A DNA stretch of 63,870 nt, counting the filler, from Dugesia japonica (taxonomy: Eukaryota), in assembly GCA_001938525.1 (NCBI GenBank). It is 5 parts of 5 records of this genome, joined end to end, with 100 filler letters (N's around TTAATTAATTAA, not from the genome) between each part and the next. Parts side by side here need not be neighbours in the genome. Positions count along the whole stretch, not along the records: positions 40,159 to 54,784 come from MQRL01608100.1; 4 more parts are not named here. One strand, written 5' to 3'. The translations under genes and the position numbers were made by a program. Below the pieces are notes generated by a model. That model was not told the origin of the DNA. It was given only the letters and a program-made list of their open reading frames with translations, and did not search any database. Below, piece by piece: positions 14,331 through 62,669 of this stretch; position 1 is the first letter of the stretch, and the number at the start of each line of letters is the position of its first letter.

Positions 14331-14399
14331 TAGATATATCATTGCAGTTTTATATAATATTACTTTTAAAGTAATTATTTAAAAGAACTATTTGTTTTA

Positions 14400-27769: not shown

Positions 27770-30018
27770 ATCCTTCTGCAATATCCATAGTATTTTTGAA
27801 TGTCACTTTNCTCGTATATGTAACATATTTCTTTTTATTATTGCAGAGTCGGAGATTCATTCCATTTTTTAAATTCACCACCGTCTTGCCGTAGAGATCA
27901 TTTTTCAGCATCTTTTAGAAATCCTTCTCAAACTTTGTATTGAAAGTCGCTCCTCTCGCTGAATTTGCGTTTATGTAATTTGCAAAAATCTCGGCCTGCT
28001 TAAATCTAATTATCCTATGTACTGCTGTCACACGAGCTTTAAGCTTTATATATAGTTCCAACAATTGCCAATAAATAATATAATGACTTTTAGGCTCATG
28101 TGTTAGTAGTAATTTCTTCACTTTTGATCCTGGTAGACATTTATGCTCTGGAGCCAAAGGTAATTGATCTAACCTATCATGATGTTTGATATGTATCTCC
28201 AGATCAATTTCAAACAGGTATCCAACTTCATTATTTTTGTTACCACCATATAATAATTTCTAGTACTCCCCTTCAACNNNNNNNNNNNNNNNNNNNNNNN
28301 NNNNNNNNNNNNNNNNNNNNNNNNNNNNNNNNNNNNNNNNNNNNNNNNNNNNNNNNNNNNNNNNNNNNNNNNNNNNNNNNNNNNNNNNNNNNNNNNNNNN
28401 NNNNNNNNNNNNNNNNNNNNNNNNNNNNNNNNNNNNNNNNNNNNNNNNNNNNNNNNNNNNNNNNNNNNNNNNNNNNNNNNNNNNNNNNNNNNCGATACGA
28501 ATCGAAGTGGTTCCAACCCATGTTTCTCAAGTGCTTTGTTCCTGAATGTTTGAAATACATCATCCAATAGATAAATATCCAACTTCATGTAATATAACAT
28601 GTCCCACAGCTATTGGCACATATTTTACTCACCAATCATCTTCCGGTATCAAAAGAGCTTCTATATCTGCGTATATTACAAATCACGGTGTCATGGTTTT
28701 TCCAAAATCGTTGAATATCAACTCTTTCTCGTCAGGCATTGTGTAGAATGTTGTTTTTCCGTTATCTGGCTGCATAGTGCTACATGTCAATCAAATGTAG
28801 CCTGTGTCTTGAATCCGTGCAGACACTTTTGACATGTATTCGACATTTTATTGATTTGACGTCTAAATTTAATAATCTTACAAATTTACCACACCCTTAT
28901 AATGATAATCTTTATTNCTTTCCAGCACCAACAAACTCACTGGGCGTCCAACTGGGGTTTTTGTTAGGAAAATCACATCAACGTGTGAATTTTTGTACAC
29001 AATTTCAGCATCTTTTTCTTCATCAAGTACTTCTTTAAATTTGAAAACAGTTATTGATAATTCATTTTCCCGCTCAAATTCAGGGGTATTGGTGAGCTTC
29101 ATTGGCATCTTCTGTTCATCATACACCAATTCATGTAAAAAACCATCGCATTTTTGCGGAAGATCACGATGATCCTTGATTATATTGTATTTAAGTACCG
29201 CCAAGATACTATAAATAAAATTTTATTATCATTGTTACAAACATGCACTATTGCTTTGCTTCCACGTAACGAATCAGAACTTTGAATGAATGAGCAACCA
29301 GATAAGTAAATTACAGAATCAAACTTCACAAAATAAGCCTGAGTTCCAATATTCTTCTAATTTTCCACTCACTACTGAGCTTAGAATAAGTTTCAATTTT
29401 TTAATTTGCTTTAGCCGTTATCTTTCCCATAAAATCATCCAAATATTACATCGCCTTGTAGGACCATGACCATTCCTTAATTTCCTCTTCTCCACCATTC
29501 TTCTTAAATTCTGCTTGAACTCCAAATTGGACTTTAGAATGTTTGAATTTCCGAATTGTTTCTTCTACTCTATCCTTTATATTTGCATGAATGTTAACCG
29601 CTTTCATCTTCAAATGATCCACCTTGAACTAGAGACTGACATAGATGTTATTAAAATCTGTCATTACATAGTCATTAGTAATTGTTGTCATTCTTTTTCT
29701 TTTCTTGTTTCCATCCATCTCTTCATTTTTATGAGTTATTTTTCGTTTCATATTCATTTTAACAAATTGCTGTTCATCACTCTCATTTTGTTTATAACAA
29801 ATTGCTGATGGGGATAACGATAAATCAATAAAACTAGCAATATTAAAATTTGTTTTTAATGAAAGTTGTTGCTCATCATTATCATCACGTGATGATGTTA
29901 ATGTTTCAATCAACCCGTATATACTAAAATCTATTTGTTTTCTTTTACTATTGTCGCCTAAAATCCTATCAATTGAATAAGACAGATTAGCATGATTAAT
30001 AGATAATCTATTAAACAT
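27770..30018 (-). pseudogene. Polinton protein-primed DNA polymerase B (internally deleted, decayed)
   Basis: N-terminal SSEWKIRRILEL (GSGW-equivalent) and KAIVHVCNND; exonuclease FVIYADIE; LDIYLLDDVFQTFR; KKLLLT...VHRIIRFKQ...YINAN...FEKDF*KMLKNDLYGKT. Confidence 0.9.
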
Positions 30019-30772
30019 GACTGAATGCTGTAGATAATTATTTAAATAATCGTTGTTTTTCTAAATCCTGATATTGATTTTTATAAATCTGAAGATAAAT
30101 AAATAAAGATCTTTTTAAATAAAATGAGTATGTTGTAATTAAATATATTAACAATAATTTTAATCAATTTTAAAGGGATCAATGTACANNNNNNNNNNNN
30201 NNNNCATTAAATGCATAAGTACACATAACTTATTATTATTTATTTATGTTTATAGTATGACAGTATATTATAGTATAATTTATAAATTGGTTATTATTAA
30301 ATTGTTATAATTATTAATTGTTATTGGAGTTTTACCCTAGAGAGGTTAATTCCTTATAATATTAAATCTAGGGGGGTCGAACTTTATGTAAAATAAAGTC
30401 TAGGGTAATTGACCTGGTAAAACCCCGCGATGAATTTGAATCTGGTGTCCCCAAAAANNNNNNNNNNNNNNNNNNNNNNNNNNNNNNNNNNNNNNNNNNN
30501 NNNNNNNNNNNNNNNNNNNNNNNNNNNNNTTTTTACATGATACTCGCCTGATTTACTAAGCACAATTAGCCTTTTCAATTATCCACCTATAATTTTCAGC
30601 TTTGTGGAGTGTTCATTAATTCGGTCACTCTATATTTGATTATAATTTTAATAGCTATATTATCAATTCAGANNNNNNNNNNNNNNNNNNNNNNNNNNNN
30701 NNNNNNNNNNNNNNNNTTAATTAATTAANNNNNNNNNNNNNNNNNNNNNNNNNNNNNNNNNNNNNNNNNNNN

Positions 30773-35392: not shown

Positions 35393-35595
35393 TGTTAGTA
35401 ACTGATAAACTTTCTTAAAAGTCCATTAAATTCAATAAATTTTTATTTATAACACAAAATTTCAAATTTTCAAAAAACTGTTTTCAAAAGCTGAATATTT
35501 AAACAAACCTTTTAAATGTTTTAAAAAATTCTTGAAATCTTTTATAACATTTTCTTCAAACTTTTATTTGCGATTTTCAATTTTTAATCCTTACA
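35393..35595 (-). repeat. 3' LTR of the short Gypsy element
   Basis: Direct repeat of 38245-38458; preceded on the minus strand by a purine tract. Confidence 0.9.
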
Positions 35596-38244
35596 TCCCT
35601 TCGATTAAAAGAATTTTTTAAGCTTTTCTACGTTCCTTTCTAGCTCTTTTAATTTGTATTGCGTATACGATATCGTCTCTCATGTACCTTATCCGTGATC
35701 TTGTATGGACCAACGTATCTTTCATTGTCTTTTGTTCTAGTTTCTAGTTTAATCAATACTTCGTCTCCCACTTGAAATAGTCTTTTTGTAGGTGTTTCTT
35801 CCATTAACTCTTTGTCATCTTTTTGACTGTCAAACCATTGTTCTCTGTGAATTCTCCTGCCGAATACTTATTCTGCTGGTGATATCCCATATGTCTTTTG
35901 ACTTGTCGCATTCATTATGTATTGAATCTTCGGTATCCTGTTACTCCAATCCTTTCTTCTGTCTTCATCTGTGGCTGCGTTAATACAGTCTCTAATTGTG
36001 CAGAATTGTCTTTCTAAAATTTCGTTTGTATTGTGATGGTACAGACTTGAAAATTATATTTCTATATTCATCGATTCCATCAGATTCTTGAAGTTTTTCG
36101 ATTCAAATGTCTTACAGCTGTCTGCCTGAACTTCTCTCGGTGCTCCAAATCTCAGGATCCATTTTTCCATTATCACTTTTTTAATTGTCTCATCATCTTG
36201 CTTGCTGATTACCGTTAGGCTTATGTTTCGAATGTATTAGTCTATTATTCCACATATATCTCTTCATCTGTTCACAGTCTCTCGAAAAGGTCCCCATATG
36301 TCCATATATATCTTTTCAAATGGAAAATTTGCGCTTAATTTTACTGTTGTCTTTTTCGTTGCCACTGTATTAACTTTGTTCTTTGGGCACGCTTTACACT
36401 GTCTTATCACTTCTGTAATTGTCTTCTTCAGTTCTTCCATGTCGTTAATGCTGATTATATAGCTGATCATTTTCTCTGTTCCTGCACTCTATACTTTGAA
36501 TTCTTTCCTTCTTGAATATCTCGTTTGATTAGTTTGATTTCCTCTATTTCTTCTTGCCATTTACATCTCTCTATCGTTATTATCTGATTAATCTGTCTTG
36601 TTTTCATCTTCCCCATCTTTGGATTTGCATTTTGTATTTGACATTGAATGCACGTTCCGCATTTCATTCTTGAGAGTATATCTGCGTTTATGAGTTTTTC
36701 GCCTTGTCTATGTATTAGTTCATTGTTCATCTTCATAATCCTTTCGTTAAACGGTATCCAAACTGGCGTTACATGTCTATTCCTCCAACAAGATTCGAGC
36801 TCATTTCTTCCACTACGTTGAATTGTACTGTTTTCTGCACTTATTTGCACATTTTAACATGTCATCAGTTCCTATCAGCGCCACATTTGCCAGACTTATA
36901 ATAATATTGAGGCTCATCACTTTTTTTGCACCTATATTCAAAAGGCAGTCCATATATTTTCCGTGAATTCTAAATTCCACACTGAGCCTACTTTGCATCC
37001 TATCATAATTTATTTTTACTTGTTCATTCTCTTCTAATACCATTATTCTGTTATCAACACTTCTTGTTTCTTTCATTATATTGATATCTGCATTATATAT
37101 ATCTTTGAAATCTTTCTTTAAAACCACATAAACGTTTCTGTCGACTCTTTCCTATTGAGTTTCATCTTTTATACTATTAATTAAACTACTTTTACTATAC
37201 ATATGTATCTCGCGATCTGGATTGTTTTTCAGTTGATTGCTCTATCATCTTCATCCTCTTCTACCATTGCGTTTACAGATCTACGGCTGTCTCTTTTCCT
37301 AAATGCATTATTAACTGATGTCTTCCCACTCAGCTTTGAGAATCTGTTATTATCGTTATATCTTCTGTTTGTTTCCTCTCTTCGGTTGTATTGTGCTGCT
37401 TCGTTTCTTTGTTCATTATTCTGCTGTCTTCTATCATTAGTCCACATACCTCTTTTCTCCAAATTAGAATAACATTGTTCTGTATGATGTCCATTTTTTC
37501 AACATTTTGATCATCTAATTTTGTCACAATTCCTTCTTATATGATTCTCTGATCCGCATGCGTAATACATTCTTTTCTTTTCCGGACAATTTCTGCTGAT
37601 ATGACCTATCTTCTGACATGACCAACATGTAATTTCTTTTTAATCTTCACTTTGAGTTCCGTAAACGGTTGAAAAGCGTTCTTTTGTCATGCCTCTTTTT
37701 ACTGCATTGCTGTAACTCTCAAATGTATTTATATTATTTGTTTCTTCCAGGTCATCCTCATTTGTTTTTATTGTTTCAAATATCTCTTCCGAGTTAGCTA
37801 GTTTGCCTCCTTTAATCTTTATTTGCATTCTTTTGTCGCGGCAACTATTGAATATTAATTCTTTTGTCATCTCTTCTTTGCCTAGTTTGTGTGCAAAGAT
37901 TTTATTGACCAGTGTTAAAATCTGTTTCTTGTGAACATAAACGTGTTCATCCGTTCCCTTGTATTTTAAAGCTTCCACTAAGTCTTGTATTAAAGTAGTC
38001 TTTTTGTGGAACGCTTTTCTCAGTCGGTCCTCAAATTCTAATAATTCATCTTGGCATTCGTATGCTTCTCTTAATTCTCGATCAATTAAGCCAACCACCA
38101 AGCGGTTTTTATCCTTTTTCTTTACACCAATACATTCGAAGTATTTTGTGCAACCATTGATAAACTGTTCAATATCGTCAAAATGCCAGTAAATTCCTGG
38201 GTGTAGTACTTCTCGAATGAGGTCCATTGAAGCGTTGATCGCCA

Positions 38245-38458
38245 TGTTAGTTACTGATAAACTTTCTGAAAAGGCCATTAAATTCAATAAATTTTTATTT
38301 GTATTACAAAATTTTAAATCTTCAAATCTTCCAAAAAACTATGTTTTTAAAAGCTGAATATTTAAACAAACATTTTAAATATTTTTAAAAATTCTTGAAA
38401 TCTTTTGAAACATTTTCTTGAAACTTTAAATTGCGATTTTCAATTTTTGATCTTTACA
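38245..38458 (-). repeat. 5' LTR of the short Gypsy element
   Basis: Direct repeat of 35393-35595; followed on the minus strand by a TGG PBS. Confidence 0.9.
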
Positions 38459-38840: not shown

Positions 38841-39970
38841 TTAGGTTGATGAAATAAAGATCTCAACTTTAAATTAGTACAACTCAGCTTTCAAACAAGT
38901 TTATTAATCGAAATAAAAATTACTAGAATTAACGCAATTTTGCCAACGTGAAACAAGTTTATTTAAAACGGTAGTATAGAAATCCGAAGTTCTGGTGGCG
39001 ATGAAGTTGGCAAAGGCGTTTTTGGCGTCGTCTTGGTTTTTGAAGCATTTCTCATAGAGAAAATTGTTCAGATGCTTGAAAAAGTTATAGTCGGTGAGCG
39101 AGAGGTTTGGCGAATATGACGGATGAAGAAGAGTCTCGTAGTCTAATTCGTGAAATTTCTGCAGGGTTAGTTGTGCGACGTGCGGTTGAGCGTTGTCATG
39201 GAGAAGAATTAGTCTTTTTCTAATGACCAATGCTGGACACATACGTTGAAGCTTCTAGTGCATTTCTTCAATATGTTGACAGTACTTTTCTGCTGTAATC
39301 GTTTCACCCAGATTCAGGAATTTTTATGGATAAGACCGGCTGCAGATCACCAAACAATCACCATAACCTTTTTTGTTAAAATGTCAGCTTTGAAAAGTGT
39401 TGTGATTGTTGATTGCGGTTCAACCACTGCAACAAACGTCGCTGGTTGTCATAAAAAATCCACTTTTCGTCGCACGTTATAATTCGTTCAAGAAAATGAT
39501 CGTTTTTTGTTGCGCAAAACGAGCAAAGATGCAACTTCAAAACGACGATTTTTTTCTGTTCTGTCAATTAGTGTGACACCCACTTATCGAGCTTTTTGGT
39601 CTTTCAAATTTTCTTCAAATGACAAACGACGGTTCAGCTCTTCAGCAACTTCTCGTGTAGTTTTGCGAGAATCAGCCTCGATTAACAGCTTCAATTACTT
39701 ATTATCAATATCTAATGGACATCTGGCATGAGACTCATCATCGAGGCTGGTATTGCCAGAACGAAACTTCTGATAACAACCATACACCGCACATTCGTTG
39801 ACACTTGACTTGCCACAAACTTCGTTGATGTTTCAGCGGTTTGAGCGGCATTACGTCCTAGCTTGAACTCATAGAAAAAAAATACGGCGGAAATCGCGTT
39901 TCAACATCTGTGAATAAAAGCCAAATTATAGGCATAAGAAAAATTACTTTAAATTTTAAATAAATATTTA
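38841..39970 (-). mobile_element. Mariner transposon, pseudogenised
   Basis: FFYEFKLG start, FLERIITCDEKWIFYDN, LHDNAQPH and HPSYSPNLSLTDY; TTAGGTTG TIR-like end at 38841. Confidence 0.92.
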
Positions 39971-40058: not shown

Positions 40059-40158
40059 NNNNNNNNNNNNNNNNNNNNNNNNNNNNNNNNNNNNNNNNNN
40101 NNTTAATTAATTAANNNNNNNNNNNNNNNNNNNNNNNNNNNNNNNNNNNNNNNNNNNN

Positions 40159-41010
40159 TCTATAAAATGCTGCATGAGTCCAATGAAACGAGCTGCTTGA
40201 TGGCCAACGAGAACGGCCATAAAAGTCTTCAAGCCATATCATGTTTTGCGTTATCCACAGACTTGCTGAGAGTTTGGATACGAATGGACGGGAAATCTTT
40301 CAGTGCTTTGTTGGATACATGCAGTAGGGTTTTCTTAATAAGGAGTGGGGTAAGAAAACACGCAAAGCTTAACAGCATGTGTGGTACGCGTTTGGAGTCG
40401 GTGAATGGGAGTGCACTGAATATACTGGGAAAGTGTNNNNNNNNNNNNNNNNNNNNNNNNNNNNNNNNNNNNNNNNNNNNNNNNNNNNNNNNNNNNNNNN
40501 NNNNNNNNNNNNNNNNNNNNNNNNNNNNNNNNNNNNNNNNNNNNNNNNNNNNNNNNNNNNNNNNNNNNNNNNNNNNNNGTAAATTTCAAGTAATTGTGGA
40601 AAACCAGCATTCAAGAGTCAGCATGATGAATAGCATACCAAGCGAAGAAAAACTTTTAAATATATGCGCGACAATACCAGAGAATGATCACAACTTACTG
40701 ATTGATGACACGATTTCACAGCATGGTTTGACAGTGGTAAATGGACTGTCAGATGGAAGTTCGTTGTGGAAAATCCTATTGGTNNNNNNNNNNNNNNNNN
40801 NNNNNNNNNNNNNNNNNNNNNNNNNNNNNNNNNNNNNNNNNNNNNNNNNNNNNNNNNNNNNNNNNNNNNNNNNNNNNNNNNNNNNNNNNNNNNNNNNNNN
40901 NNNNNNNNNNNNNNNNNNNNNNNNNNNNNNNNNNNNNNNNNNNNNNNNNNNNNNNNNNNNNNNNNNNNNNNNNNNNNNNNNNNNNNNNNNNNNNNNNNNN
41001 NNNNTATTGG
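40159..41010 (+). mobile_element. LTR-retrotransposon aspartic protease region remnant (gappy)
   Basis: MDGKSFSALLDTCS...LESVNGSALNILG. Confidence 0.65.
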
Positions 41011-41589
41011 GTAAGATTATTAATTAATAATTATTTCCTCATAGGTTTATTGATTGTATTTAGTTTTATAGGGTTAAATGGACTTGGATAGTATAACTAT
41101 TAAATAAATTAAATGTATGAATGGTTAACTGTATCGAAATTATATTTGAATGTATGAAATTACCGTACACTTATATTATTAGTACATAAATATAAAAAAC
41201 ACTAAAAATTTTATCAAGTTTTATTTAATAGTTATGACTTAATTGAACGAATTTAAAATTATGAATATAAGAACGATGATCGATTTGGTCATTGGATGTA
41301 ACAATTCTTTATGGATCAATTACCATTAAAGGACCTAAAAATGTCACCGATATAGAAATTCAAATTTTCAACACATTTTTTTCAGTAATAATGACTTTTT
41401 GATAGATTCAAAATCATAATAGATTTTTGGTAAAAAATTCTTTATATTTTATCAACATTTTATTGGTCTATTTAAATTATAATTTCATTATTTTGAAATT
41501 AAATCTCAAAAAATCTTTTTTTAATCAAATTAAATTGTAAAATAAATATTATTTATTTTTAAATATTAAAAATATTTTATAATTACAAT

Positions 41590-42330
41590 TATTGTGAGAA
41601 TAATTGTTGGACTTAACCATTGATCGCATTTGAGATTTCATTAAAATAAGAAAAGGCTTCGATCAAAATAAAATTTATTTGTAAAAATGTTCAAATTTTC
41701 GACAATAGTCTTCNTCAGGAACATGTTGGCTTCTTGAGATATTCAATACAATAGATCTTTGTTACTCAATTCTTCAAGTTTTATCGAAATTTTATTTGTT
41801 AATTTTTTTTATACTTTTAGTTTTAAATTTTAATGATTTTAATTTTATTTTTTAAATCAACTCAACTCAAAAAATTTCAAAAATAATTTGTTTTTATGAA
41901 TTAATATAGAAAAGTCTATTAGGTATTTTAGATATATTATATTTAGAATTTTTTAATAATAATTTTTTGTAATTATTTCATAAATTTATTTCATAGATTT
42001 CTGTTGAAAGTGTTTGAAGACTTCACTTTCTTTCTGTTTCAGATGTTCTTCAATTCTTGTACGGATGGTTCTGCATTTTTCTCTTATATATTTTTCCTTA
42101 TATAAGGTGCATGTTATTTTTTAAGTGATATTTTTTAATTGCATATTTTTCTCTATCATCACAAATGCATTTAGGACCACAAAAATTCTGTCTTGGTTTC
42201 TGTAATTGGATATTGTTTGCAATAAATGTAATTTTTTGAAATTTCCAAAATTTGTTATTCGTATATACAAGTAAAATCTTTAGTAATTTTTCAAACTTAT
42301 AAAGAAACATGTGACAACATTTGTATATCT
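41590..42330 (-). mobile_element. Penelope-like remnant, inverted copy of ~32760-33420
   Basis: IQLQKPRQNFCGPKCICDD matches the 32.8-kb copy; flanking non-coding similarity to 33290-33420. Confidence 0.7.
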
Positions 42331-43943
42331 TCTATCTAGACCCAAATCAATCATTAAATTTGATACATTTATTTAACCTTACTAACCTGATACAGTCAGT
42401 AAACCTAGTATATTCTTTAAACATATGGTAAAGTAAAACTAGTGTAGTCAGTAGGACGAAATTGCAATATTCTCTCATAAACTCATTACTTACTTTACCT
42501 AAATCTGTTCAATTCACTTCAAATATACAAATAGCTATTTAATTACTTTATTAGATACCCCCCAATACATTCAACTCATATACTTTATCAAAGAATCTTT
42601 ATATCAAACACTTCAAAACGAAAGAAATAACAAGATTTATTATAAAAGATTTGTTGGGCTGGAACACCAAAAATGGTGAAATAATAGAATATGTAAAGAG
42701 TGGCAATGGTTGCCGAAAATAGAAAAAAGTATACACAAAATTGATGGGCTGGATCAGGAAATTGATTATTATGTACAAGAATATCATTATTATTATTATG
42801 GTCATTATTATTATGTAGTTATTATTATAATAATTATTATGNATTATGCTTAGAAAATATCGAAAAATAAAAATTGGGCGTAGAAGACCCAATTATGGTG
42901 GTACGAAAATGAAAATCATATGCAGAGAAATTGAAATCAAGATGTTGTCAGAAATTAGAAATTTAAATGCAGCGAAAAACGAAAAGAATATGTAGAGCAA
43001 TTAAGATCAAGATGTGTTCAGAAATTTGAAATAATTGGAAGATGTTGAAAAGTGAATGACCAAAATTTGTTGAATCTTATACGAGTAAATAAAGTAGAAA
43101 ATATTGAAAGTTGATAAAGGACCGAGAAGACAAATTTCCAGGATCAGGCGGAAATGTTTCAATGTGAAATGTCGAGTAAAAGTAAAATTAAGGAGTTAGT
43201 CAAATTTTATGGTGAGATATTTGAAGCTTTCAGTAAATTAAAGAGCTTTCATTGATGATAATTTGCCAGGAGCAGACGGAAATGGTCCATGAGAAATGAA
43301 TAAAATTTATTAATGAGTAAAGGAGTCATGAGCTCAACGGAGGAATAAATTACAAGGAGACGAAATAAATTAATGGAGTTTATTGGAGTAATGTGTCAAA
43401 AGTACATCTGGAGAACCTACATTAGCTATGGATTAATGATTACGAGAAAATTGGGTACAAGAGTATGTTAAACTGTTAACCTATATGATTTATAATTGAA
43501 ATTAATAATCTGAGTGGAACTGTTTCGGAACAGTAAATATTGAAATGGGTATTTCAGTAGACGTAAAAAAATAAAATTGCTGCTTATGTATAATAAATTA
43601 CGACGTAATAATGGTAAAATTACGTAAATACGCTGCTAAAGTAATAGAAATCAAGTATGGTAATGTATCGTAGTGTAGTAATTGGTAATTAGGAGTATCA
43701 ATCGGTAGATAAAAGTAGTTAAAAGTAGTCAATTAATAAATGCGGTAATAATATTTGAATGCGTGCAGAAGCCGTAGGGCCATATTATTTAATTTCCGAA
43801 ACAAAAACAATCCACATTCCAATATTCCCAAATTCGAGATAAACCAATCAATCTGCGAATAAACCAAATAAACAATCATAGATAATCAAGGATCCCGATA
43901 CAGTTTTAGAGAAAGTACTGAACATAGAAGATCGTTTGTAATT

Positions 43944-45235
43944 ATGAGACATAATCCAGCCAAAGTAAAGCGATCGGTCTCCTACAACAGACCGTCTCGA
44001 CAATTCAACCCACCTCTATCAATTTCAACATCCAAATCACCTAATTCGTTCCCGTCTAACGACGAGGTACAAGGAGGATTTGATACCATAACCGAACCAA
44101 CCCACTCAAGAGCCGATTCTTAGAAGACATTAATCCGGAAAGTTTATACGAATCTAAATCAGTTATTGAGAGTATAACTACGACAAGAGCATCAAGTAGA
44201 ATTCGTCAATACTCGGAATCTAGTTCGGAATCAAGTAATACTGATACTATGTCAGCCAACAATAAAGAAAAGGAAACCGAGGAGAATTCTAAAATTTCAG
44301 TTGAATTCAGAAATTGAATGATTTTATTGCAGAAGTATACATATATAAGCGTGTCAATGGAGTGACAAGAAAGCAGCAGATCAATCACCTCTATATTTGA
44401 AGGATTCAGCTAAAACTATTTACTGGGATAAAATTAATAGTCGTAAAGAACCCGTTGATACATGGGAAAAGCTAAGGAAGTATTGTTGGAAAATTTCAAG
44501 CCAATAATGTTGCAAGAACAAGAAATTCAAGAGTTCGTTGGTCGAAGACAACTAAGAGATGAAATCTTTCAGGCATACGCAACAGAATTACGTAAACTCG
44601 GCAAATTGGCGATGAAAGATAAGTTGGATGATCCAANAGTGCTCGGTATTTTTATTAAAGGACTTAGAAATGCAGAAGTGAAAAAATGGGTAAATCTATC
44701 TCAGCCCACGACGGTGGACATGGCAATAAACGCGGCGATGGTAGCACATAAAGTGGAAATGAATCAAAAACAAGCCAGTGTCTTTAAAATTGAAGAGCAA
44801 AAAGAGGAAGAGAAAAGCGAACCAAAAATTGCGGATTTTATACCTGCCAGAACTCAACCATTATTAAGAAGACTGTCAGCAGGTCAGAATAGACCACCAG
44901 CATGACAATCAAATAATAATTCAAGATCAACTGGAGGAAATAGATAAGGAGCGTGGCAGCAACCCCAAGGAAGTACCTGTTATAACTGTGGTAAACTCGG
45001 TCATTATGCCAGAGATTGCAGATTGGCAACGATATGTACAAATTGTCAGAAACCAGGACATAAAGCGGAAAATTGCTTCATCACAAAATCCTCAGTGTGT
45101 TATTCATGCAATAAACCGGGTCATACGAGTAGAAATTGTTTCCAGAATAACCAAAGATCTGGCTATAGGAATTCTAATACAAACTACAATAATAAATCAA
45201 GAAACAACCAGGCCATTGGGAAAATGATGGACTAA
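43944..45235 (+). pseudogene. gag: Gag (capsid plus three CCHC zinc knuckles)
   Basis: WSDKKAADQSPLYLKDSAK...TW; RRQ...FQAYATELRKLG...FIKGL; knuckles CYNCGKLGHYARDC, CTNCQKPGHKAENC and CYSCNKPGHTSRNC. Confidence 0.9.
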
Positions 45236-45559
45236 AATGATAAATTAAGGAACCAGATAAAAAATAATCGAAACCAAAATCAACAACAAGTGAATCTAAT
45301 GCAACAAGATAAGCGAAGGTAAGATGAAATAGAGCAGCGAGTATTTGACAAGTTGAAACAAGAGCAGGAATATTTACAATTACAATTAGAGGGATAACAA
45401 GTAGCGAGAGAGAGAATGCAAAAGCGAGAGAATAATCGAGGACAGATAAATATGATGAGAGCACATCCAATGGAAGTTGAGCTATCGGCAAAGGAAACAG
45501 CAAAAAGAGCAACGATAACGAGACAGCTTGAGGATAAAATTGCAATGATCCAAACTTTC

Positions 45560-48500
45560 AAGACAGTAGTTTATCGAGAAGCATATTGGGCAATGATGAA
45601 TCATTTGTTGGAATTAATGGAGTTAGAGGTATTAGATGCGTACACCAGTGAAGTGTGGTTTCTTCAGTCGCAAGAATATGAATCGGAATACAAAACCTGA
45701 TGATTAAAGTATTAATGCTTACGGGCCGGCCATAGATGAAGATTCAACTGAATTAAAATATCAAGAGATACCTAGGAAAATTGTGTTGAAGGATACTACT
45801 GTGAGTGGATTATTACANNNNNNNNNNNNNNNNNNNNNNNNNNNNNNNNNNNNNNNNNNNNNNNNNNAGTATGTTTTGTGTTCTCGAACTAGAGTGATCG
45901 AACAAGATGATGGTAAAGCACATATATCGGAATATGGAGTTTGGCCAGGTAAAACAACAATAAAGTTAATAGATTTAGTAGAAATGCATCGCATTAAACG
46001 ACCATTGTAGTATTATTTTGATTTCAGAACGACCGAGCAAATATTAAAATCATTTGAAAAGAAATATCACAAATATATGGTGTTATAACGGACGGAGTCA
46101 ACAACTACAACCAAAGGAATAAGCAAATTGCAGCAAGGATTTCTGACAGATGTGGTAAAAGAGATCAGACAGCCAATGACCCGGCAAACAAGAGGAGCAG
46201 CAAAAGCAGAAAATACCATGGCTCAAATCAGCATGATAACCAAAAGCGATCCAACGCGATCGAAAGCCCCGATTAGATACAAAACAAGAGTGTATGATTA
46301 TGTAGAAACGGTCATAAAGGATGTTAAATTATTGAAGGATGAATTACCCAGGAAGGCTTATTGGAAATTAATGAATCATTTAGTTGAGTTAGCTGAACCA
46401 GGTCATATTGACACGATGACGGGAGAAAAATGGAGACCAATAATTCTTGAGTGTGAGAAAGAGTTGTTAGAAAACACAACCGTGGAGGATTATAAAATCA
46501 AAGCAATGGAAGCATGGAGACCGGATGAAGATAGAACCGCATTCATTACGATGGATCAGGTTTTGAAGAAAGTATCAATGGCGACAAAGTGGAACATCCA
46601 ACGAGTGTTAAAACCGAAAGGAACGACAGTAACAGACTTAATCGACGTGTTGGAGGAGGTGGAATGGGTAAAACCCATTGGCGAATATATTATCTGTACC
46701 CCAGTGTCAGTAGTTAGTATCAATGATATGAATGTACATATTTACGAATATGGTCTAAAACCTGGAACTACTATAGTAATTACGATGTTAGAAAATCGCA
46801 GAATGCGTTTATATAACGAACTAATTTGGGCTCATTTCTACTTTAGAACAACTGAAAATATAATCATTTCGTTGAATAGATGTCAAATAAAGTATCTTGC
46901 GCCTTTATTAGAAAAGAGAACACCACAGATAACCCGATTAATTGAATTACCTAAAGCGGAAATACCGAGCGTTGTAATGAAAACTACTATAGAAGCTAAC
47001 GATGAAAAGTTATCGAGAACACAGCCAGGACCAGCTAGAGTTTTTATGATGAGATCATTTTCAAGTAAAATACTAAAAAGAGGTAAAAAGGGTGCTAACA
47101 ATCAAGAAATGTGGGAGAAGGAAGTGTGAATGAGCCGCGTGAAACATCAGCTACTGTCAATGAGGACAGTAACGAGGATAACTATCATAATTTAGCTGCA
47201 ATAAATAAATACGTGGGTATTACATTAGAAAGAAAAGAATTAATTCCGAAACAAACTTATTGGAGAATGCTGAATTTAGTTTGGGATGTACACTATCATT
47301 ATGATATATTATGGGAACATTGGAGGAACTAGTCTGAATTAATTAAAGAGTATCAGGAGATGATAGTAGCAACGACAGTTGGATCGGATTTTAGGGTAAA
47401 AATCCACTATCCTACAATGGATGATAATTTGTGCAAGACCATGCAGACGAAAATAGTTGAGGAATTTAAAACTACCAGAGTGGGTGAATTGCGAGCAATA
47501 CTGAGTAAATTGCCTTTGGAGAAAATATTTGAGAAATATCGGATTGTGTGTGATTATACAAAGAGACAAACTGAATAAAAGGGATCAACATGTGATTGAA
47601 TTACGATTGAGACCAGGAGAGATTACTGAATTAACATTGGAATTAGATGACCGAAAATTAGAAACCGAAAAAGTTTGAATTACAATCAATTAGTCGAATT
47701 AGGACAAAAATGAGAAAAGTGTATGTAAATAAAATAGATAAAATGGAATATTTGAGAATCGTTACTGACGAGGAGATCAAGTGGATTGCAGATGCAGAAA
47801 ACGAAAGCGAACCGTGGCAAAGTTTGAAGCGAACTACGGCAAAAATGGCGTTAACAATTTACAAGAATTACAGTCAAATGGCTGAGTTGAATATTCAAGA
47901 GATAATAAACAGATTGAACCAGTTGTGTATGATAGGAAGAAAAGAGTTGTACACCCTTATACATACGTTAACAATAACTCATGCAGACGGCATAACAAAA
48001 CAAGATGTGAAAGTAACAGTGCATTTCCCGGATGAATCAAGTAAAGAGTTTGATATTAAAACGACGACAAACTGGGATAAATTAATAAAGAAAATTATCA
48101 AACATTTGAATAAACAAACAACGAAGGGATAAGAGAATACACCCATTACTAAACGATAGGTTATTGTAGTTTATTGCGGAGGAGAGTGAGGCCATATGAT
48201 GAATGTCTATATTTTTGCAAATGAAGAAAATGAGAGAAACTCGTATACGTTAAAATCAATCAGAGAAAATTTGTGTAGAAAGACAATACGGTATTATGCC
48301 AATAATATCAATCCAAAGTTGACATGGGGATTGCAACTACATAATGATGAAATTGAATTATCAAATTGAGAAACGATAGCGGTAATACAGCAGAGACCAA
48401 TGTTACATCGCCAATACAAATCAAATCAAGAGTTGAGTAGATCACAAGAAATGATAGCTGTAATGACCGGTAAATCGAAAAAAGGTAGTGGAGATTCTGC

Positions 48501-48930
48501 CGATATGATAGATCAATTTTTATAAAAATTCAAGAGAAAAGTATAAACAAAACCAATGTGGAGCATATAGCGGATTAATTATTGCAGAGTGATTTATCAA
48601 TTGAGGAGTTGAGATCATTGACCTACGAAATATCCAGATGTAAAGAGGAATGCAAATGGAGACCAAAACAATTTAAACTGCTGATATCAAGATGGAGAAA
48701 ATGCAAACAAGATGAAGTAGTACCACTTAGATTTAGCTTCAGAATCGTAGAACCAGATGGTCATGAAACGAGAATCTCGAATTTGGCGTACGAGACAGTA
48801 AACCAGATGAAATCTAAAATACCATACAAGTTGCCATATGTACTATTGAACAATCGGGAATTATTGAATAACGATATCATCGGGACGTTGGATATCCGAC
48901 AAAAGGTAGAAAATAAAATGTATATCAAAC
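45560..48930 (+). pseudogene. Array of repeated novel domains: 3x (YWxxxN motif plus ubiquitin-like fold) and 2 further Ubl-like units
   Basis: YREAYWAMMNHL / PRKAYWKLMNHL / PKQTYWRMLNL; HISEYGVWPGKTTI / HIYEYGLKPGTTI / HVIELRLRPGEIT; VTVHFPDESSKEFDI; FRIVEPDGHETRI...ETVNQMKSKI. Confidence 0.55.
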
Positions 48931-49839
48931 CGGAAGGTAGTAAACGATTGATCAGAAGAAAATTACCACCCAATGAAATTAAAAATAAATTGCAATCGGG
49001 ACTAGGATCAAGTCAGACATTGATAAAATCATTTGTACAACCAATGACGCCAGTTAGCACGAGTGAAGTAGTTGCCAAATCAAGAGGACGACCGAGAAAA
49101 TCACAAATCAAGGAGTCAACACCAGAAAATATCACAGAAGATGAAATAGTAGAACAGATTTTTGATCTTGAAGATGAGGTGGATGATGAAGAGATTCAAA
49201 TAACCCAAATGGAACCAGCGACCACGTCAGAGTCAAAAGTACTAATGAAACCAAAAAAGTTGGGAAAATTTAATCCAAATCAACTGGATTTGGATATGGA
49301 GGAAGACGATATATCAGTTAGATTGGACGAAATTGCCGACGAAATAATACCACAAACGGCAATGTTTGAAGAAATGAAAATGACAACGGATAACACGGAT
49401 TGGAAGTACAATTTTGTCAACGGAAAGTAAACAATTAGCAACGATATTAGAACCGATCATAGCCAAATTACCAGTTGCCAAACATACCCTCCTCAAGGAT
49501 CGAGAAACGATGGAAAAAGAAGTACAAGGGGTATTGTCGAATCGCCCGACAATTCCAAAATTATTAGTGGCATTTGCATATTTAGTAAAACAAACGCAAA
49601 TATCAGTTCGTTGTAGGCCAGGAATGAAATTTCAATTAAGAAATCTACCGATAGTCAGGATAACAAATGATCAAATCGAACCGATATTAGTAAAGGTCGG
49701 AGGTTGGAATAGAATAATCGAAAAGACGAAACCAAAAACAAATTCGAGTAAAACATTAAACGAACGAGTCCATGCATTATTAAAAGATTATATCGACGAA
49801 TACGGAACTGAAACGAATCGAAGCACAAGAACCAACAGT

Positions 49840-51751
49840 ATGCAGTCCATGTTCATGGTATTAATATTAATGTTCTTAATGGGCCGAAGTGCAGCAATCC
49901 GAGCTTATGATTGTGATCATATGGATATCGGGGAAACGGTGTATTCATTAATCGATGCAGAGGAATCCCCAGAAGCAAACCCAGAAAAGTTAGAAGTTGT
50001 ACAGAAGTCGATTAGTTATTTTGTGTACCAAGAATCAGATTATTACAAGACAAATGTAAGGGAAAATAAAGTAACAATGTAAGTATTTGTATATTGGTGT
50101 GGAGGAAGTAGTTATTCGGCGGTCATATCCCCAGGTATGGAAGTAATGCATGTTCTCCTTACAAGACAACAGTGCGAATCTGGATTTACAACCGGTAAAA
50201 TACCAGTGGGGAAAGGAAAGATGATTAAGGAGGTCAAAAAGTACAAACCCGTCTGTTCGCAGCAGGATCAATCTGGGATGCTACGGGAACATGTGTACAA
50301 GGGAAATACACTAGCCCTTTAGGTTATGCGACTGGAGTCGTGGCCATAGAAAGTTATAGAGCGGAATTAAAAGAATTTGATGCCTTATTTGATACAACGA
50401 CCAAAACGATGAAGATGTATTCAATGTTTTTAGCCTCAGATAATACGTGTAATACAGGAGAGTCAACTTTAGTATATCAAGTCAATCATCAAGAATGTAC
50501 GATGTCATTTCTTAGAGAGGTTTTGTTCGATGAGTATCGAGGAAAGAAAATTGTTGACTCAGTTAAAGAGGAGAGAATGCCAGCCATCGGAAAAGTAAAC
50601 GTGGAAATGAAGACAAAGGAGGAAGCTCTATTGTCGTCTGATACACGAACCGTATTAATGGCAACCGATGCAAATGATATGATTAGATTAATCCGTAAGA
50701 AATCCGAGGCCAATGTGGAAAAAATGCATATAAAACAAATTACAATAGAATCTTTGTATCAAAGTGGAGACTGGAAAAGGGAAGAGATGGAGTTATGCCT
50801 CAAGATACTAAGTTATATTTATATCTGAATAATAAAGTGGACACTTTGTTCCACCTAGCGCAACAATCTATGGAGCGAATGTATCATGATTTGATCTATA
50901 ATGACTGTTTGTTAAATCGCGAAATATTACGGACAAAATTAGCAACAGCGATAACGAACCCCGACAATGTAACCCCAGTGTTACCATTGTAAGAGGGTCA
51001 TGTCGGGCAAATTGTTGGAGAATTTATGTTCATATATCGATGTAGGAGGGTGGAAGCAATTTTATCCAGAGAGAAAACTTGCTATAATGAGATGGAAATC
51101 AATTATATGGGAGAAAAAAGGTATGTACAACCTATTATAAGAGTAATATCAACAAAAGCATTCGTACCAAACAAACTGTTTTAATTTATTCGAACCCTAC
51201 TTTAAAATGACTAACAATAAATGGATATATTTCCCTGAGAGATTACCTGCAGATACGTTTGTGAGAAATTTTTCAGCATTAGAACTGAAGGCGGGGCGGA
51301 CTTTTAACCCATTAAATGTAGCAGAAGGTGGTATATTCAAATTGGAGGATCTGGAGAAGGCCAGAGAGCACATGTTGTTTCCGGTCAAACGAATGCAAAT
51401 TTTATCTAACCTTGTGTATGTCGCTGGAGGGGCATTTACTCAGAGGGGAGACCGAATTATGAATTATTATTATCACTAGATCACTTTCAACAAGCAACAG
51501 CAAATGTAATGAAGAAGATGTGGGGTCGATTTATAGTTTTCGGACAAGCCATGGCAGGATTATTGGGGATAATCTTTATAGTGCAAATAATAAAAGTATT
51601 ACTGACTCAATTATTAGCGTGTTTCGATTTATACAAAAAGGAAAGGAAAATGTCCTGGACAATGATTATAGGATTATTCCCAGCGTGGGCTAAATCAGTA
51701 GTAATAAATAGTCATTCAAATGACTTGCATAACACCAGAAGGTTATTGTGA
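49840..51751 (+). pseudogene. env: Chuvirus-like (class III) fusion glycoprotein / env
   Basis: Signal peptide then AYDC; YSL; YWCGGSSYSAV; QQC; YLNNK...MYHDLIYNDC...LATAITNP; GE..IYRC..VE...CYNEM...YVQP..RV; GGIF..EDL..R.HMLFP; MWGRFIVFGQAMAGLLGIIFIVQIIK (TM). Motif order matches Jingchuvirales glycoproteins as I recall them. Confidence 0.85.
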
Positions 51752-52499
51752 TATCTGAGTCAATTGGGTGGAAGCGACAGGTAGATAGTTGAACAAATTC
51801 GTGCAATATGTGATGACATGAGAAAGCGAAAAGCAAGGAAGACATCCTATTTTGATGTATTTAAACCATGGAGATGACAAGATAGTAGTAGTGATGATAG
51901 TAAAGATGATTCATATGGCAAACGACAAAGACGAGGAGTAGTACCGAGTTACGGATCTAGAAAGCACCAGAAAGTATTCTAAGTGAATTATCAGAATCAA
52001 TTATCAGATGGGAATATCGCGAAAGATAATATTTGTGACCAGGAGGACAGAAGTGAAATTTATTGCTATGGTTACCCACAAATGGGAGTACAACAGTGTG
52101 AGAATAACAAATAATTTAGTAAATATCAAAGTGATGACTAAAGACAATCTAGGAAAGGAGAGAAATTAAACGAATATCGGAGTGAAGAGGAGCGACATTA
52201 CCGATCTGGAAATGGGAGAGGACGGAAAAATAGTAAAGCATGGAAGCAGCTATAGAATTCAAGTTATGATGCAGAAAATCGAGAATTAATCTACTATCCG
52301 AATGATGAATTACAGTGAATACGCAGACAGCCCGACTTCGAGGAACTTAAACAACGAATTCGAGCAGAGTATGAAGATAAAAAGAAATCTTATAGAGTGA
52401 CAGATAACAAAATTATTGGAACAGCACCACCCGAAGATACAAATTTCAGTATAATATCTGATAGCAAAGAAATAAAAGACAAGGATACCAGAAGCCTTG

Positions 52500-52790
52500 C
52501 GCCAATGACAATATCAGGTGGTAGAGTGTTACTCAAAAAATTGATAATTAACGGTAGAGAAATAGATTGTATGATCGATACAGGAGCGTGTAGATCAATC
52601 ATCGATAAATGAGTGTTGTATGAGGTAGATAAAGCTAGAATGCGTAAAGAAGGAATCCAAATGCTAACGGTAACCGGACAAGCCGTAAATACAGTGCGGA
52701 AATGTGCGCTTTATGCATCCTATGCAAGTAATGCAGAATTTAGTTTTTGATTGTATTGTGGGATTGGATATAATGGGAAGGCGTTTTTCA
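52500..52790 (+). pseudogene. Retropepsin aspartic protease 1
   Basis: LIINGREIDCMIDTGACRSII...LTVTG...FDCIVGLDIM. Confidence 0.88.
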
Positions 52791-52858
52791 GGTGGAAAAT
52801 TAGATTTGAATTTGTGTCAACAACCGAATGAAAGTAAATTAACAATGACTCAGACAAA

Positions 52859-53205
52859 ATGTGTACATTGCAATAAGCGAGGTCATTTATCAAGCAGATG
52901 TTGGAAAGTTGGAAATAATCCAACCTGGTGTATAAATTGTCAACGACCAAACCATACCACTAAAGAATATCNNNNNNNNNNNNNNNNNNNNNNNNNNNNN
53001 NNNNNNNNNNNNNNNNNNNNNAAGTTGGAAATAATCCAACCTGGTGTATAAATTGTCAACGACCAAACCATACCACTAAAGAATATCGCAGTAAATATAA
53101 ACATTGTAAAACTTGCGGGAAAAAGGGGCATTCCGAAATGGAATGTGAGAAATTGAATCGATGTTATGTGTGTGGTTTAATGGGGCATTTATCAAGAGAT
53201 TGTCG
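52859..53205 (+). pseudogene. Second zinc-knuckle cluster (4 CCHC-type)
   Basis: CVHCNKRGHLSSRC, CINCQRPNHTTKEY, CKTCGKKGHSEMEC and CYVCGLMGHLSRDC. Confidence 0.85.
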
Positions 53206-53289
53206 GAGACGAGTTGAACTCAAACCAGAAATCGGAAATACAGTTAAAATTCCTCGAACGAAGAAGAAAGTTTATGTGTGTTTAAACTA

Positions 53290-53599
53290 TTCTGAGACTG
53301 GGAATCGAATACTAATAGATCTAAAAATCAATGGGAGGATATTATCCGCGTTGTTGGATACCGGAGCAACAATATCAGTATTAAATTATAATCTAATATC
53401 ACCAACCAAGTGGCCATANNNNNNNNNNNNNAAATCAGAAATATTTTTAGCGGATGGATGGCAACCAGAAGTGTATGGCAAATTGCGATGTGAAGTTGAG
53501 TATCAGAGGAGAACAGTATCGCATGAAATGACAGTAATGAATATGAGGGAGGATTGTATATTGGGAACGGATCTAATTCCATTATTGATGAAAATGTAG
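53290..53599 (+). pseudogene. Retropepsin aspartic protease 2
   Basis: LKINGRILSALLDTGATISVL...FLADG...EDCILGTDLI. Confidence 0.9.
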
Positions 53600-54042
53600 T
53601 TTTGAATATGACAACATTGAAAATATCGAATTCCAGAGAAAATCTATATATGAAGGATAATGAAGTATATACAAACGAAAAATTGGTGATACCGAGGAGG
53701 AATCAAGTATTTTGTATTGCGAAAACCCAAGCAAACTGTAAAGAGGATATGATTTTTGAACCACTTGAAGGGTTCTCAAAGCGATATAAATTACTAGTGG
53801 CGAGGGAAATAGTAAAAGTGTCTGAAGAGGGCAAAGTGCCAGTGAATGTATTGAATATGACAGAGGAAGATATTACTATTTATTCAAATTCCAAAATCGG
53901 AGTATTAACCCCACTGGAAGACGAAGAGGCGGAAATGAATAATGTGATAAATAATGATTATGAGAAATTAAAAGGAGATATGGCGAAGCGATTGGAAATC
54001 GAGTTACCGACAAACGCATAAGAAGTAGATCAGACATTTAAA

Positions 54043-54784
54043 GTGGAATCAACCATTCTATCAGCAGCAAAAAAAGCTAAATTATTACAACTATTGGAGG
54101 AATTCAGAGATAATTTTGCGTGGACAAACAATGAATTAGGTACGTGCTCGGTGACCAAGCACTCAATAGTACTAACAGACGAAACACCGATAAAGTTGCG
54201 AACTTATAAACAGGCCGAGGCAAACAGGAAAATTTGCGAGGAGAAAATTGACGAGATGCTAAAATTTAAAGTAATCGAGCCAAGTTGTTCACCGTGGCAA
54301 TTTCCAGTAGTATTGGTAAAAAATAAAGATGGAATAATGAGATTCTGTATCGATTACAGACAACTAAATGCGAAAACGAAAAAGGTTACTTATCCGTTAC
54401 CAGACATTAACAATATGTTAACGTTATTATATAATGCAAAGATATTTGCGACATTAGATTTGCGGAATGGATATTGGCAAATCAAAATAGAGGAAGCAGA
54501 TAAAGAGAAAACCGCATTTTCAGCAGGCAAGGATTTATATCAATTTGTGCGAATGCCGCTTGGATTGATAAACGCGCCAGCATCATTTCAGAGATGCATG
54601 AATTTTGTGACACGTGGCATACCACAGTGTATGGTATATATAGACGATTTGGTGATATTTTCAGTTACGTTTGAGGAACATTTAAAGGATTTAAGAAATG
54701 TGTTTGTACGAATAAGAGAATGGAAACTACGAGTGAAACCAACAAAGTGTGAATGGGCGAAAAATCAAGTGACTTATTTGGGGC
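54043..54784 (+). CDS. pol: Ty3/Gypsy reverse transcriptase (N-terminal part; runs into a gap)
   Basis: IEPSCSPWQFPVVLVKNKDG..RFCIDYRQLN, LDLRNGYWQI, KTAF, MPLGLINAPASFQR, YIDD and KCEW...VTYLG. Confidence 0.95.
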
Positions 54785-54884
54785 NNNNNNNNNNNNNNNN
54801 NNNNNNNNNNNNNNNNNNNNNNNNNNNNTTAATTAATTAANNNNNNNNNNNNNNNNNNNNNNNNNNNNNNNNNNNNNNNNNNNN

Positions 54885-55048: not shown

Positions 55049-56080
55049 TTAGACATTAGTTTTTCGAAAATGTAAAGTTAAATGTGTTTTTGAATCTTTT
55101 GGAAACTTGATTAACTTTCTGTTATCATCACTCATATTAATTTCTATATTGTTTATACATGTTGTTGCAATCGGTAAATACATTGAATTATCAACTATCA
55201 TTTGTACTACTTCATCAGTTTCATATTTTTCTATCCATACTGATTTCAAAAGAGGAACTTTAACATCTCCTACAATNNNNNNNNNNNNNNNNNNNNNNNN
55301 NNNNNNNNNNNNNNNNNNNAACTTAATTATTTTCGGTTTTCTAATACCTTGTAATATACCATCTTTCAATTCTGAATGTGAATATTTTTGTTTTTCTTAT
55401 CCCAATGTTTTTTTCAAGACTTTATCAAATGTAACAGTTTTGATATAATTTCTTAGTGACATTTGAAATAGATTATTTGCTTTGAAGCTATTTATGTAAA
55501 ATAGTTTAGAACCGCTTTCTGTTAAATACTTACTTAATTTCTCAATTTCTTTTATGTATAATTCATCTTTCAACTGTATACTATTATAACTTATTTGAGT
55601 ATATTCTATTTTAAATTTTACATATTCTATTGGAGAATCTTCTTTATATGCTGTANNNNNNNNNNNNNNNNNNNNNNNNNNNNNNNNNNNNNNNNNNNNN
55701 NNNNNNNNNNNNNNNNNNNNNATTATTTCATTTTCAAATATGGCAACATATGGATATTTACATTTAATAGTTAAATATCCACTAATCGCTATATAAATAT
55801 TATTATTTTTACTTACACTTAAAGATTGTTGTTTGTGATCAATTGTGACAGTTATTTCATTTGATATATTTCTTGTAGACATGTATTGAATTTTAGACTT
55901 GCTATATAACGGAAATGTTTGATATACAAAGGTAAAATCCAACAATGCTACTTCCCAACTACCATCCATATAAATTTGATTTTGAAGCTCAACAATGAAT
56001 TTACTAGCATTATTATTCGGATGAATAAGCGAGCAACTATTACTAGGTAAAAGTGTTACGAAATTATTCACATTGTTCAT
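55049..56080 (-). pseudogene. Polinton minor capsid protein (penton)
   Basis: N-terminal FVTLLPSNS...PNNNASKF...GSWEVAL and C-terminal VGDVKVPLLKSV...YLPI...IEI..SDD....IKF....LTLHFRK, split by a stop/frameshift. Confidence 0.8.
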
Positions 56081-56089
56081 TATTAACTA

Positions 56090-61099: not shown

Positions 61100-62669
61100 G
61101 TGGTCTTTTCTGATAAAAGTTTAAAACTCTGACATTGTACATAGCTTCAATGTAAATCTTCTTCTAATTCTGATATATAATTTCGGCTGAATGTTATTCT
61201 TCTACGTCATAGTGATTATTAATCCAAATTCTTTTATACTTTTATATTATTTAGGTCATAGTTACATTCAATGAAAGTCCCTTTATAATTCTTTTTACTT
61301 TTCTCTGAAACCACCTTAATAGTTAAGTCCTAGTCATAATCTGTTAAAATTATTTTACATATATTTAATCGTAATTGTTAATATTTGAGTCGTAATAAGG
61401 TACCTCTAAAAATTTGTTTTAGTATTTGTATTCGTAATCATTGAAACTTATTAACTTGAAATCGGTTAATATGTGCGTTTTTAGAAGAATTATTGAAATT
61501 TATATACTGAAAATCCTTTAAACAACTAACTCTCTTGGAATAGCTTTGGCTTTTAGGAATTGATCCGTCATAGTTCTCTCATCATTTGTCATTAAATCAT
61601 CTGAATGTTCATCGTTTGCTGCCCCATTATATTGACGATAATCTCTTTTTATATCCCGAATCTCATACCATTGATGTTTAAAATGTCCAGGTCTGTTACA
61701 CTGGAAACATTTTACATTTGGACAATTAACTCTGACATGTCCTTTTTCTTTGCATGCCGAACATCTTAAATCCTCTTCCATCAAAACGATTAATGAATGC
61801 ATTTGAATTAACAAATCTTATGGAATTCGAATATCGGTTTCTGTTGTATTCCACTAAGTTATTCATTTTAAATTGTTGCATAATTCTTTTTTACGATTTT
61901 AACTGCTGCAACATTGACTTCTAGATTAAGCTCCTTCTTCATACTGCCTATTTTTGAAATAATGTCTTTCATTTCTTAATTTGTTTTTGATCCAGGAATT
62001 TTTATTTCTTTTTTAACATCCATATATTCAACAGCATTTTACAAAAGAAAACCGACGAGATTTTCTTTTGTCAAGTTATGTCTGGTTATATTCTCTGTTA
62101 GATGATCAATTTTGTTGAAAAACGAATTTATGGATTCATTTTTTTTTCGATAATTTAATGCAGCTATTAAATTTTTAACGATATTTGCTGGTTCTTCAAA
62201 AGCTTTTCTGCATCTTTGGCATAATCTTCAATTGAATCATACACAGATTCATATCTTTTAACAGCTTCTGAGAAAAGAAATACTTTGATAAATGTTCTTT
62301 GAACAAGACCTTGAGTCATTGTAAGCTCATAAAATCTTGCCATCTCGATTAAAAATTCTTCCACATCATCTCTAATATCGAAGGTTTTTGGAGTAGAAAC
62401 AAACGAATTGAGCATATTTTCTTGGGTGGTCGCTATGTTAGAAGTCTCTTTTATTAATATTATTACTATAATATTTATTAATATGGCAATCTAAAAAGAG
62501 GAATAAATATATATATTTATATATGATTTGATCAATCAACATACCTCTGTCAGCAAACAAACATTGGTCTGTTATAAAACATACAAATTATTTGAATTCA
62601 TAGTCAAATATTAATTATGCAACATACAGTTTTAATAATCATTAATAATAAATATAAAATATCCTCACA
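61100..62669 (-). mobile_element. Ty3/Gypsy remnant: 5' LTR (~62446-62669), gag and knuckles
   Basis: TGTTAG...CACA LTR-like ends; mutated PBS TAGCGACCA; Gag PKTFDIRDDVEEFL; CSACKEKGHVRVNC / CFQCNRPGHFKHQ. Confidence 0.75.

Follow-up and report, generated by a model that had tools for sequence, protein, structure and literature searches.

A decayed, probably Burro-like Ty3/Gypsy retrotransposon copy from Dugesia japonica with a chuvirus-like glycoprotein gene between gag and pol

Introduction

We present here a retrotransposon copy found in the genome assembly of the flatworm Dugesia japonica (GCA_001938525.1). The window, meaning the whole stretch of DNA that was analyzed, is 63,870 nucleotides long, filler included, and the copy lies in its part from MQRL01608100.1. 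Positions 44249-54784 encode, on the plus strand, a Gag capsid region followed by three CCHC knuckles; after a 4.2-kb spacer come a glycoprotein gene, two aspartic proteases, and a reverse transcriptase (RT). This is very probably a decayed, assembly-cut copy of a Burro-like Ty3/Gypsy retrotransposon with a chuvirus-like glycoprotein (env) gene between gag and pol, the product of which is predicted to have a class III fold. A preliminary description, made from the sequence alone, had placed gag, extra domains, glycoprotein, protease, and RT in this order on one strand, and the order of Pfam domains bears this out. That account omits the second protease, the second knuckle cluster, the Bcl-2-like segment, and the assembly boundary at 54784.

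Elements of this kind are already in print; here and below, each paper is cited for its passages on them only. The planarian Burro elements are described as having two or three knuckles in Gag, besides ubiquitin-like, Bcl-2, and dUTPase-like domains (PMC6431247). Their env, described in 2019, stands in frame between Bcl-2 and the protease and matches arthropod and fish mononegavirus fusion proteins, and decayed Burro fragments are present in a third planarian species (PMC6431247). Gypsy elements of the GAG-ENV-POL order with an env of glycoprotein B (gB) type have been catalogued in Nematoda, Bryozoa, and Platyhelminthes, and S. mediterranea accounts for six (PMC13524379, Chary and Hayashi). 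The same paper reports chuvirus-like glycoproteins adjoining Gypsy pol and calls the mode of entry of GAG-ENV-POL elements unknown. In arthropods, chuvirus-like glycoprotein remnants often adjoin fragmentary Gypsy copies, with no clear capture (PMC10084718), a finding overtaken by the later PMC13524379. The preliminary description started from the premise that a Gypsy env always lies 3′ of pol, which Burro and the GAG-ENV-POL catalogue contradict, and it proposed an undescribed, independently derived lineage, for which the layout had in fact been published (PMC6431247, PMC13524379).

Results

The coordinates of the element are given in Table 1. One 100-base linker, a 12-base stop in all frames between two runs of 44 N, occurs four times, at 19310-19409, 30673-30772, 40059-40158, and 54785-54884, so the window consists of five separate assembly pieces, and neighbors across linkers are not real neighbors. 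Position 54784 is such an assembly boundary, and RNase H, integrase, and the 3′ long terminal repeat (LTR) therefore fall outside the piece; the element runs 10.5 kb from the start of gag to the middle of RT and is then cut. Stop-free stretches of at least 60 codons cover 86% of 44250-54784 on the plus strand and 57% on the minus strand, compared with at most 26% in 100 shuffles. The near-continuous coding noted earlier is nevertheless overstated, since every gene is interrupted by stops or frame changes.

Table 1. Features of the retrotransposon copy, in positions of the window (relatives' proteins carry P numbers)
Feature	Position	Strand	Evidence
Assembly piece with the element, its right end cutting the element	40159-54784	.	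artificial 100-base linkers 40059-40158 and 54785-54884
5′ region of the element: purine skew, decayed short frames	42550-44248	+	skew shift near 42500-42750
Gag capsid region, frame changes	44249-44905	+	PF03732 Retrotrans_gag E 8e-4, below Pfam's cut-off; match to relative P0004
Three CCHC zinc knuckles (nucleocapsid)	44975-45141	+	zf-CCHC PF00098 E 1e-19, 3 stretches
Accessory-domain spacer	45236-49427	+	tblastx/blastp self-similarity, Pfam, Atlas scores
Bcl-2-like segment, in frame with signal peptide	49510-49720	+	continuous match to P0007 residues 20-250
Internal signal peptide, predicted	49840-49902	+	hydropathy and position; Kyte-Doolittle peak 1.74 at 49849
Chuvirus-like glycoprotein gene, predicted class III fusion protein, broken	49840-51751	+	PF24664; fold of intact relative P0007
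Low-complexity linker, many stops	51752-52510	+	frame translation
First aspartic protease, DTG motif, broken	52514-52790	+	E 0.006; resembles second protease, E 5e-4
Second cluster, four CCHC-type knuckles (one degenerate), between proteases	52860-53205	+	resembles Gag knuckles, E 2e-5
Second aspartic protease, DTG motif	53306-53590	+	RVP PF00077 E 4e-9
Conserved domain between protease and RT, at the position of Burro's dUTPase-like domain	53602-53952	+	common to 4 relatives
Ty3/Gypsy RT, YIDD motif, cut by assembly boundary	54022-54784	+	RVT_1 PF00078 E 1e-32

The glycoprotein gene was identified by four colinear Pfam matches to PF24664, Monjiviricetes_fusion (E 2e-14, 1e-19, 5e-8, and 6e-11; profile positions 4-135, 303-422, 419-510, and 522-580). 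Between 49852 and 51742, a profile of nine close relatives matches it in five pieces, all colinear and scoring 53-184 bits, that together cover 626 of 657 positions; the best of 50 shuffles scored 5.8 bits. Hydropathy peaks at 49849 (signal) and 51548 (transmembrane helix). The frame 49384-50082 starts upstream of the hydrophobic signal and enters it without a stop, as reported earlier. Within the gene, stops stand at 50080-50082 and 50990-50992, and the frame changes near 50240, 50710, 51170, and 51440. Eleven of the 14 cysteines conserved in at least eight of the nine relatives are kept and three are lost. Gag, the spacer, the proteases, and the stretch before RT are likewise all interrupted by stops or frame changes. 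The element copy is dead and cannot make the glycoprotein; the suggestion that it is possibly infectious fails for the window copy, in which env is broken.

The fold was modeled on the intact relative P0007 with an 80-row alignment (pLDDT 84). The model matches herpesvirus gB in the PDB by Foldseek at E 1e-13, with low TM-scores of about 0.3, and by VIA-align with Z 9.7 and an rmsd of 8.2 over 396 aligned positions. It also matches chuvirus-like glycoproteins in the BFVD (E 9e-44). For the window glycoprotein, a class III fusion-protein fold is predicted by transfer from P0007. Together with the Pfam matches, this agrees with the chuvirus-like fusogen named in the preliminary description.

The window RT was compared with solved structures. 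Ty3 RT is best (E 3e-45), followed by caulimovirus (E 8e-31), foamy virus (E 1e-23), and MLV (E 2e-8), and none of the 21 RT structure matches is a BEL or Copia RT. Pfam scans of the relatives found RT_RNaseH and Integrase_H2C2, which we take to be Gypsy marks, and no Peptidase_A17, which we take to be a BEL mark. By these matches, the RT is assigned to the Ty3/Gypsy type (Metaviridae), as first described. Membership of BEL/Pao (Anakin-type) elements was ruled out by the Ty3-like RT and the lack of Peptidase_A17 in relatives.

Relatives were sought with one env piece, which found 324 proteins at E ≤ 0.001, 150 of them listed. Eighteen were picked for a Pfam scan: 12 of the top 13 matches, another four long proteins, and two stand-alone examples. 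Env precedes protease or RT in one frame in 10 of the 18, follows integrase in one, and is accompanied by no pol domain in seven. A single frame in P0008, and likewise in P0025, encodes CCHC, env, protease, RT, RNase H, and integrase; env also precedes pol in a 4,844-residue cluster member. The order of protease, RT, RNase H, and integrase is whole in P0005, P0008, P0017, P0025, and P0152; the window shows only protease before RT. Among the matches listed, envs embedded in polyproteins are 36-46% identical to the window env and stand-alone proteins of about 650 residues are 20-33% identical. Aspartic-protease motifs number seven in P0152 and three each in P0003 and P0005, some of them after integrase; a search of open-access papers turned up only PMC6431247 and unrelated reviews, with no description of polyproteins with several proteases. 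P0152 also contains an ankyrin domain. P0008 is filed as a Flavobacteriaceae bin protein and is likely animal DNA in a bacterial bin. A word-index homologue search with the env piece gave nothing among 45 candidates, and a metagenome scan reduced 137 pattern matches to one weak locus, which was not used.

A quick env tree was built from 135 env pieces and 168 columns, after proteins with fewer than 125 matched residues and two near-duplicates were dropped. The window env belongs to a clade of 14 rows (SH-aLRT 98), seven of them env-before-pol. One group of 27 rows (support 90) takes in all 11 rows of this order but not the env-after-pol row. In an RT tree of eight rows, the window groups with P0005, P0152, P0008, and P0010 (92/100); P0017 and P0025 fall outside this group, which is also their place in the env tree. 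Because relatives share frames with env before pol, and because env and RT have the same neighbors in their trees, we consider env, on sequence grounds, an integral part of the element and not a private viral insertion. The first account had likewise treated the glycoprotein as part of the element and had called for these two phylogenies.

Two copies of a module of about 200 residues, at 45527-46079 and 46302-46898, make up part of the accessory-domain spacer (tblastx E 2e-9; blastp E 6e-9 and 1e-6), and near 47517-47639 there is a fainter trace of a third. Nothing more than a lead points to ubiquitin-like folds in the spacer: PDB sequence searches of two candidates returned nothing significant, six candidate units gave no convincing alignment with one another, and a single-sequence model of the module was unusable (pLDDT 40). 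P0007, P0002, and P0027 align with the segment that precedes the signal peptide and share N and GGW with it. Three of the four aligned segments match PF00452 (Bcl-2), the best at E 3e-5, and a profile of the aligned segments finds Bcl-xL at E 7e-4. The window's own segment has no PF00452 match, and a PDB sequence search of it alone found nothing significant. Indirectly, these matches indicate a Bcl-2-like domain directly before env and in frame with it. Neither the spacer module nor the second knuckle cluster has a match among the 153 proteins compared, and a CCHC knuckle after env was found in 0 of 14 long relatives. Within the second knuckle cluster, a 66-base repeat (52906-53087) is present in 100% identical copies on either side of a 50-N gap and is likely a gap artifact. 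For the domain before RT, one of five members matches PF00692 at E 0.1, and a PDB search with a profile of the domain gave nothing significant (dCTP deaminase, E 2.4).

No convincing candidate for a primer-binding site was seen in the 5′ region. A repeat search of the window found no LTR pair for the element and no second copy of the 5′ region. Scans of the window gave no Rfam matches and no tRNA, and a PHROGs scan of eight pieces gave none. Decayed short frames occur upstream of gag at 42550-43700 (plus strand), in purine-skewed DNA.

Other elements were seen elsewhere in the window. A second decayed Gypsy-like element occupies 35393-38458 on the minus strand, with an integrase match at 35655-36482 (E 3e-12) and a gag-like frame at 37640-38338. 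Direct repeats of about 200 bases, 89-90% alike, stand at 35393-35595 and 38245-38458 and may be its LTRs. Retrotransposon remnants lie at 13318-14339 (plus strand; RNase H-integrase trace, E 1e-5) and 61518-62490 (minus strand; gag-like piece with CCHC knuckles, E 1e-6). A 229-codon frame at 55397-56086 (minus strand) has no match in Pfam, PHROGs, or PDB; its start presumably resembles a Polinton/Maverick minor capsid protein. Two further minus-strand frames, 27915-29222 and 17853-18317, have no informative Pfam or PHROGs match, and we take them to resemble pieces of a Polinton-type protein-primed DNA polymerase. A DDE_3 match (E 8e-4) lies at 38904-39254 on the minus strand; this stretch and 14458-14820 on the plus strand are presumably mariner-like transposase fragments.

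Discussion

Judged from its sequence, the window element fits the published GAG-ENV-POL group with gB-type env on every feature testable. It shares with the HSV/gB-type errantiviruses (PMC13524379) a Ty3/Gypsy RT, a gB-type homologous env, and the gag-env-pol order, and it comes nearest to Smed_errantivirus_5 and _6. Over an ungapped stretch of 94 residues chosen for good alignment (50262-50543), and so not for the whole gene, a hand count gives 49 identities (52%) with Smed_errantivirus_5 and 40 with Smed_errantivirus_6; the six published S. mediterranea envs are as little as 27% identical among themselves (PMC13524379). The catalogued elements are intact and number 1 to 215 copies, whereas the window copy is broken and cut off, and the spacer module and second knuckle cluster are not described in those passages.

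Membership of Burro proper is likely, as the preliminary description had guessed. The likeness to Burro/GYPSM1, drawn from the published description (PMC6431247), extends to Retrotrans_gag with three CCHC knuckles, a long accessory spacer, a Bcl-2-like domain directly before env and in frame with it, an env ahead of protease with matches to mononegavirus-type fusion proteins, and a conserved domain between protease and RT. The env similarity to the Smed_errantivirus elements points the same way and by itself makes a planarian host likely, in line with the flatworm guessed in the preliminary description. The window differs in having two proteases with knuckles between them and no detected MATH, BIR, ankyrin, or Smc domain, all of which vary among Burro families. 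Burro is near 30 kb long and reads gag-env-pol in a single frame; the window element is cut after 10.5 kb, and its upstream junction is open and the rest broken, with single frames found in relatives. The Burro env was likened to gypsy Env in PMC6431247, whereas the fold of the relative modeled here is gB-like class III, as in PMC13524379. Anakin, a mosquito BEL/Pao element (Dezordi et al. 2020), also has a chuvirus-like glycoprotein on an LTR retrotransposon but has a BEL/Pao pol, while the window RT is closest to Ty3 and its relatives have Gypsy-type RNase H and integrase. The nematode non-canonical endogenous retroviruses (Sacco et al. 2022, cited in PMC13524379) are alike in being metaviruses with an RNA-virus glycoprotein before pol.

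Several observations weigh against this assignment. The evidence on the element is one copy plus relatives' proteins. The env tree is a quick one of 168 columns, eight rows make up the RT tree, and the window branch is long. The modeled protein is P0007, 28-51% identical to the window by piece, and not the window's own protein. In the window copy, stops in 51752-52510 close the junction from env to protease, and A content is 35% in env versus 39-41% in the flanks, although GC content, at 37% in env against 35-37% in the neighboring genes, speaks for the assignment. The ubiquitin-like call is weak, with Atlas scores of 0.81-0.83 and RA_2 at E 0.024 in the spacer, as is the putative dUTPase-like identity of the domain before RT, and the broken spacer pieces of the window gave no Pfam match to MATH, BIR, ankyrin, or Smc.

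The closed 3′ junction and the slightly lower A content of env would also be expected if a separate endogenous chuvirus-like glycoprotein gene had landed by chance in an env-less Gypsy copy, and the arthropod remnants beside fragmentary Gypsy copies (PMC10084718) speak for such an event. We hold it highly improbable here. The nearest relatives, among the matches listed, are envs embedded in polyproteins, with stand-alone proteins lower; the junction from Bcl-2 to env is common to P0007, P0002, and P0027; the env and RT trees agree; and at the family level env already stands at the same position in relatives. The copy could instead be a chimera: recombination, nesting, or mis-assembly at the N gap may have fused the gag, spacer, env, and protease of one element with the knuckles, protease, and RT that end another, related one. 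A protease after knuckles is what a gag-pol junction usually shows. This counts for a chimera, as do the lack of knuckles after env in the 14 long relatives and the gap with its duplicated 66-mer inside the second cluster. Against it, one frame leads from the first protease to the knuckles without an intervening capsid domain, relatives often have several protease motifs (as many as seven in P0152), and the RT is of the same lineage as env. On balance a chimera appears improbable, and because RT and env are of one lineage, the family-level layout would stand even so.

A gag-env-pol retrovirus lineage of independent origin, hitherto undescribed and without kinship to Burro or the published flatworm elements, would account for the unmatched spacer module and second knuckle cluster and for the failure of Pfam to detect Burro1's MATH, BIR, and ankyrin domains, and the likeness to Burro does rest on description and not on a consensus sequence. 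The residues in common with Smed_errantivirus_5 and _6 (49/94 and 40/94, versus a minimum of 27% among S. mediterranea envs) and the published Burro order of Gag with three knuckles, Bcl-2, env, and protease (PMC6431247) make such a lineage scarcely credible.

For a Burro-like element, an active ancestor would have encoded one long polyprotein. Its internal signal would direct the ectodomain into the endoplasmic reticulum, and past the single transmembrane helix, near 51548, the chain would again be cytosolic. Gag, Env, and Pol would then be cut apart by signal peptidase of the host and by the element's own proteases. Particles carrying the gB-like fusogen could fuse with neighboring cells, such as neoblasts or germ cells, and the Bcl-2-like and spacer domains might damp cell death. 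Because gag, env, and pol all contain stops or frame changes, the window copy can perform none of these steps. A more specific proposal, which we regard as doubtful, is that the copy represents a distinct planarian sub-lineage, with tandem ubiquitin-like modules and a Bcl-2 mimic before a gB-like fusogen and a second nucleocapsid cluster that a pair of proteases would excise, and that intact members of this sub-lineage spread as infectious particles into stem cells.

A broken, cut-off copy gives no approach to particle formation by flatworm elements; intact, multicopy elements for this are catalogued in S. mediterranea (PMC13524379). To the known design, the window element adds the repeated spacer module and the second knuckle cluster between the proteases. 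One decayed copy is added to a published family, and the chuvirus-like env is confirmed as a stable part of a Gypsy polyprotein.

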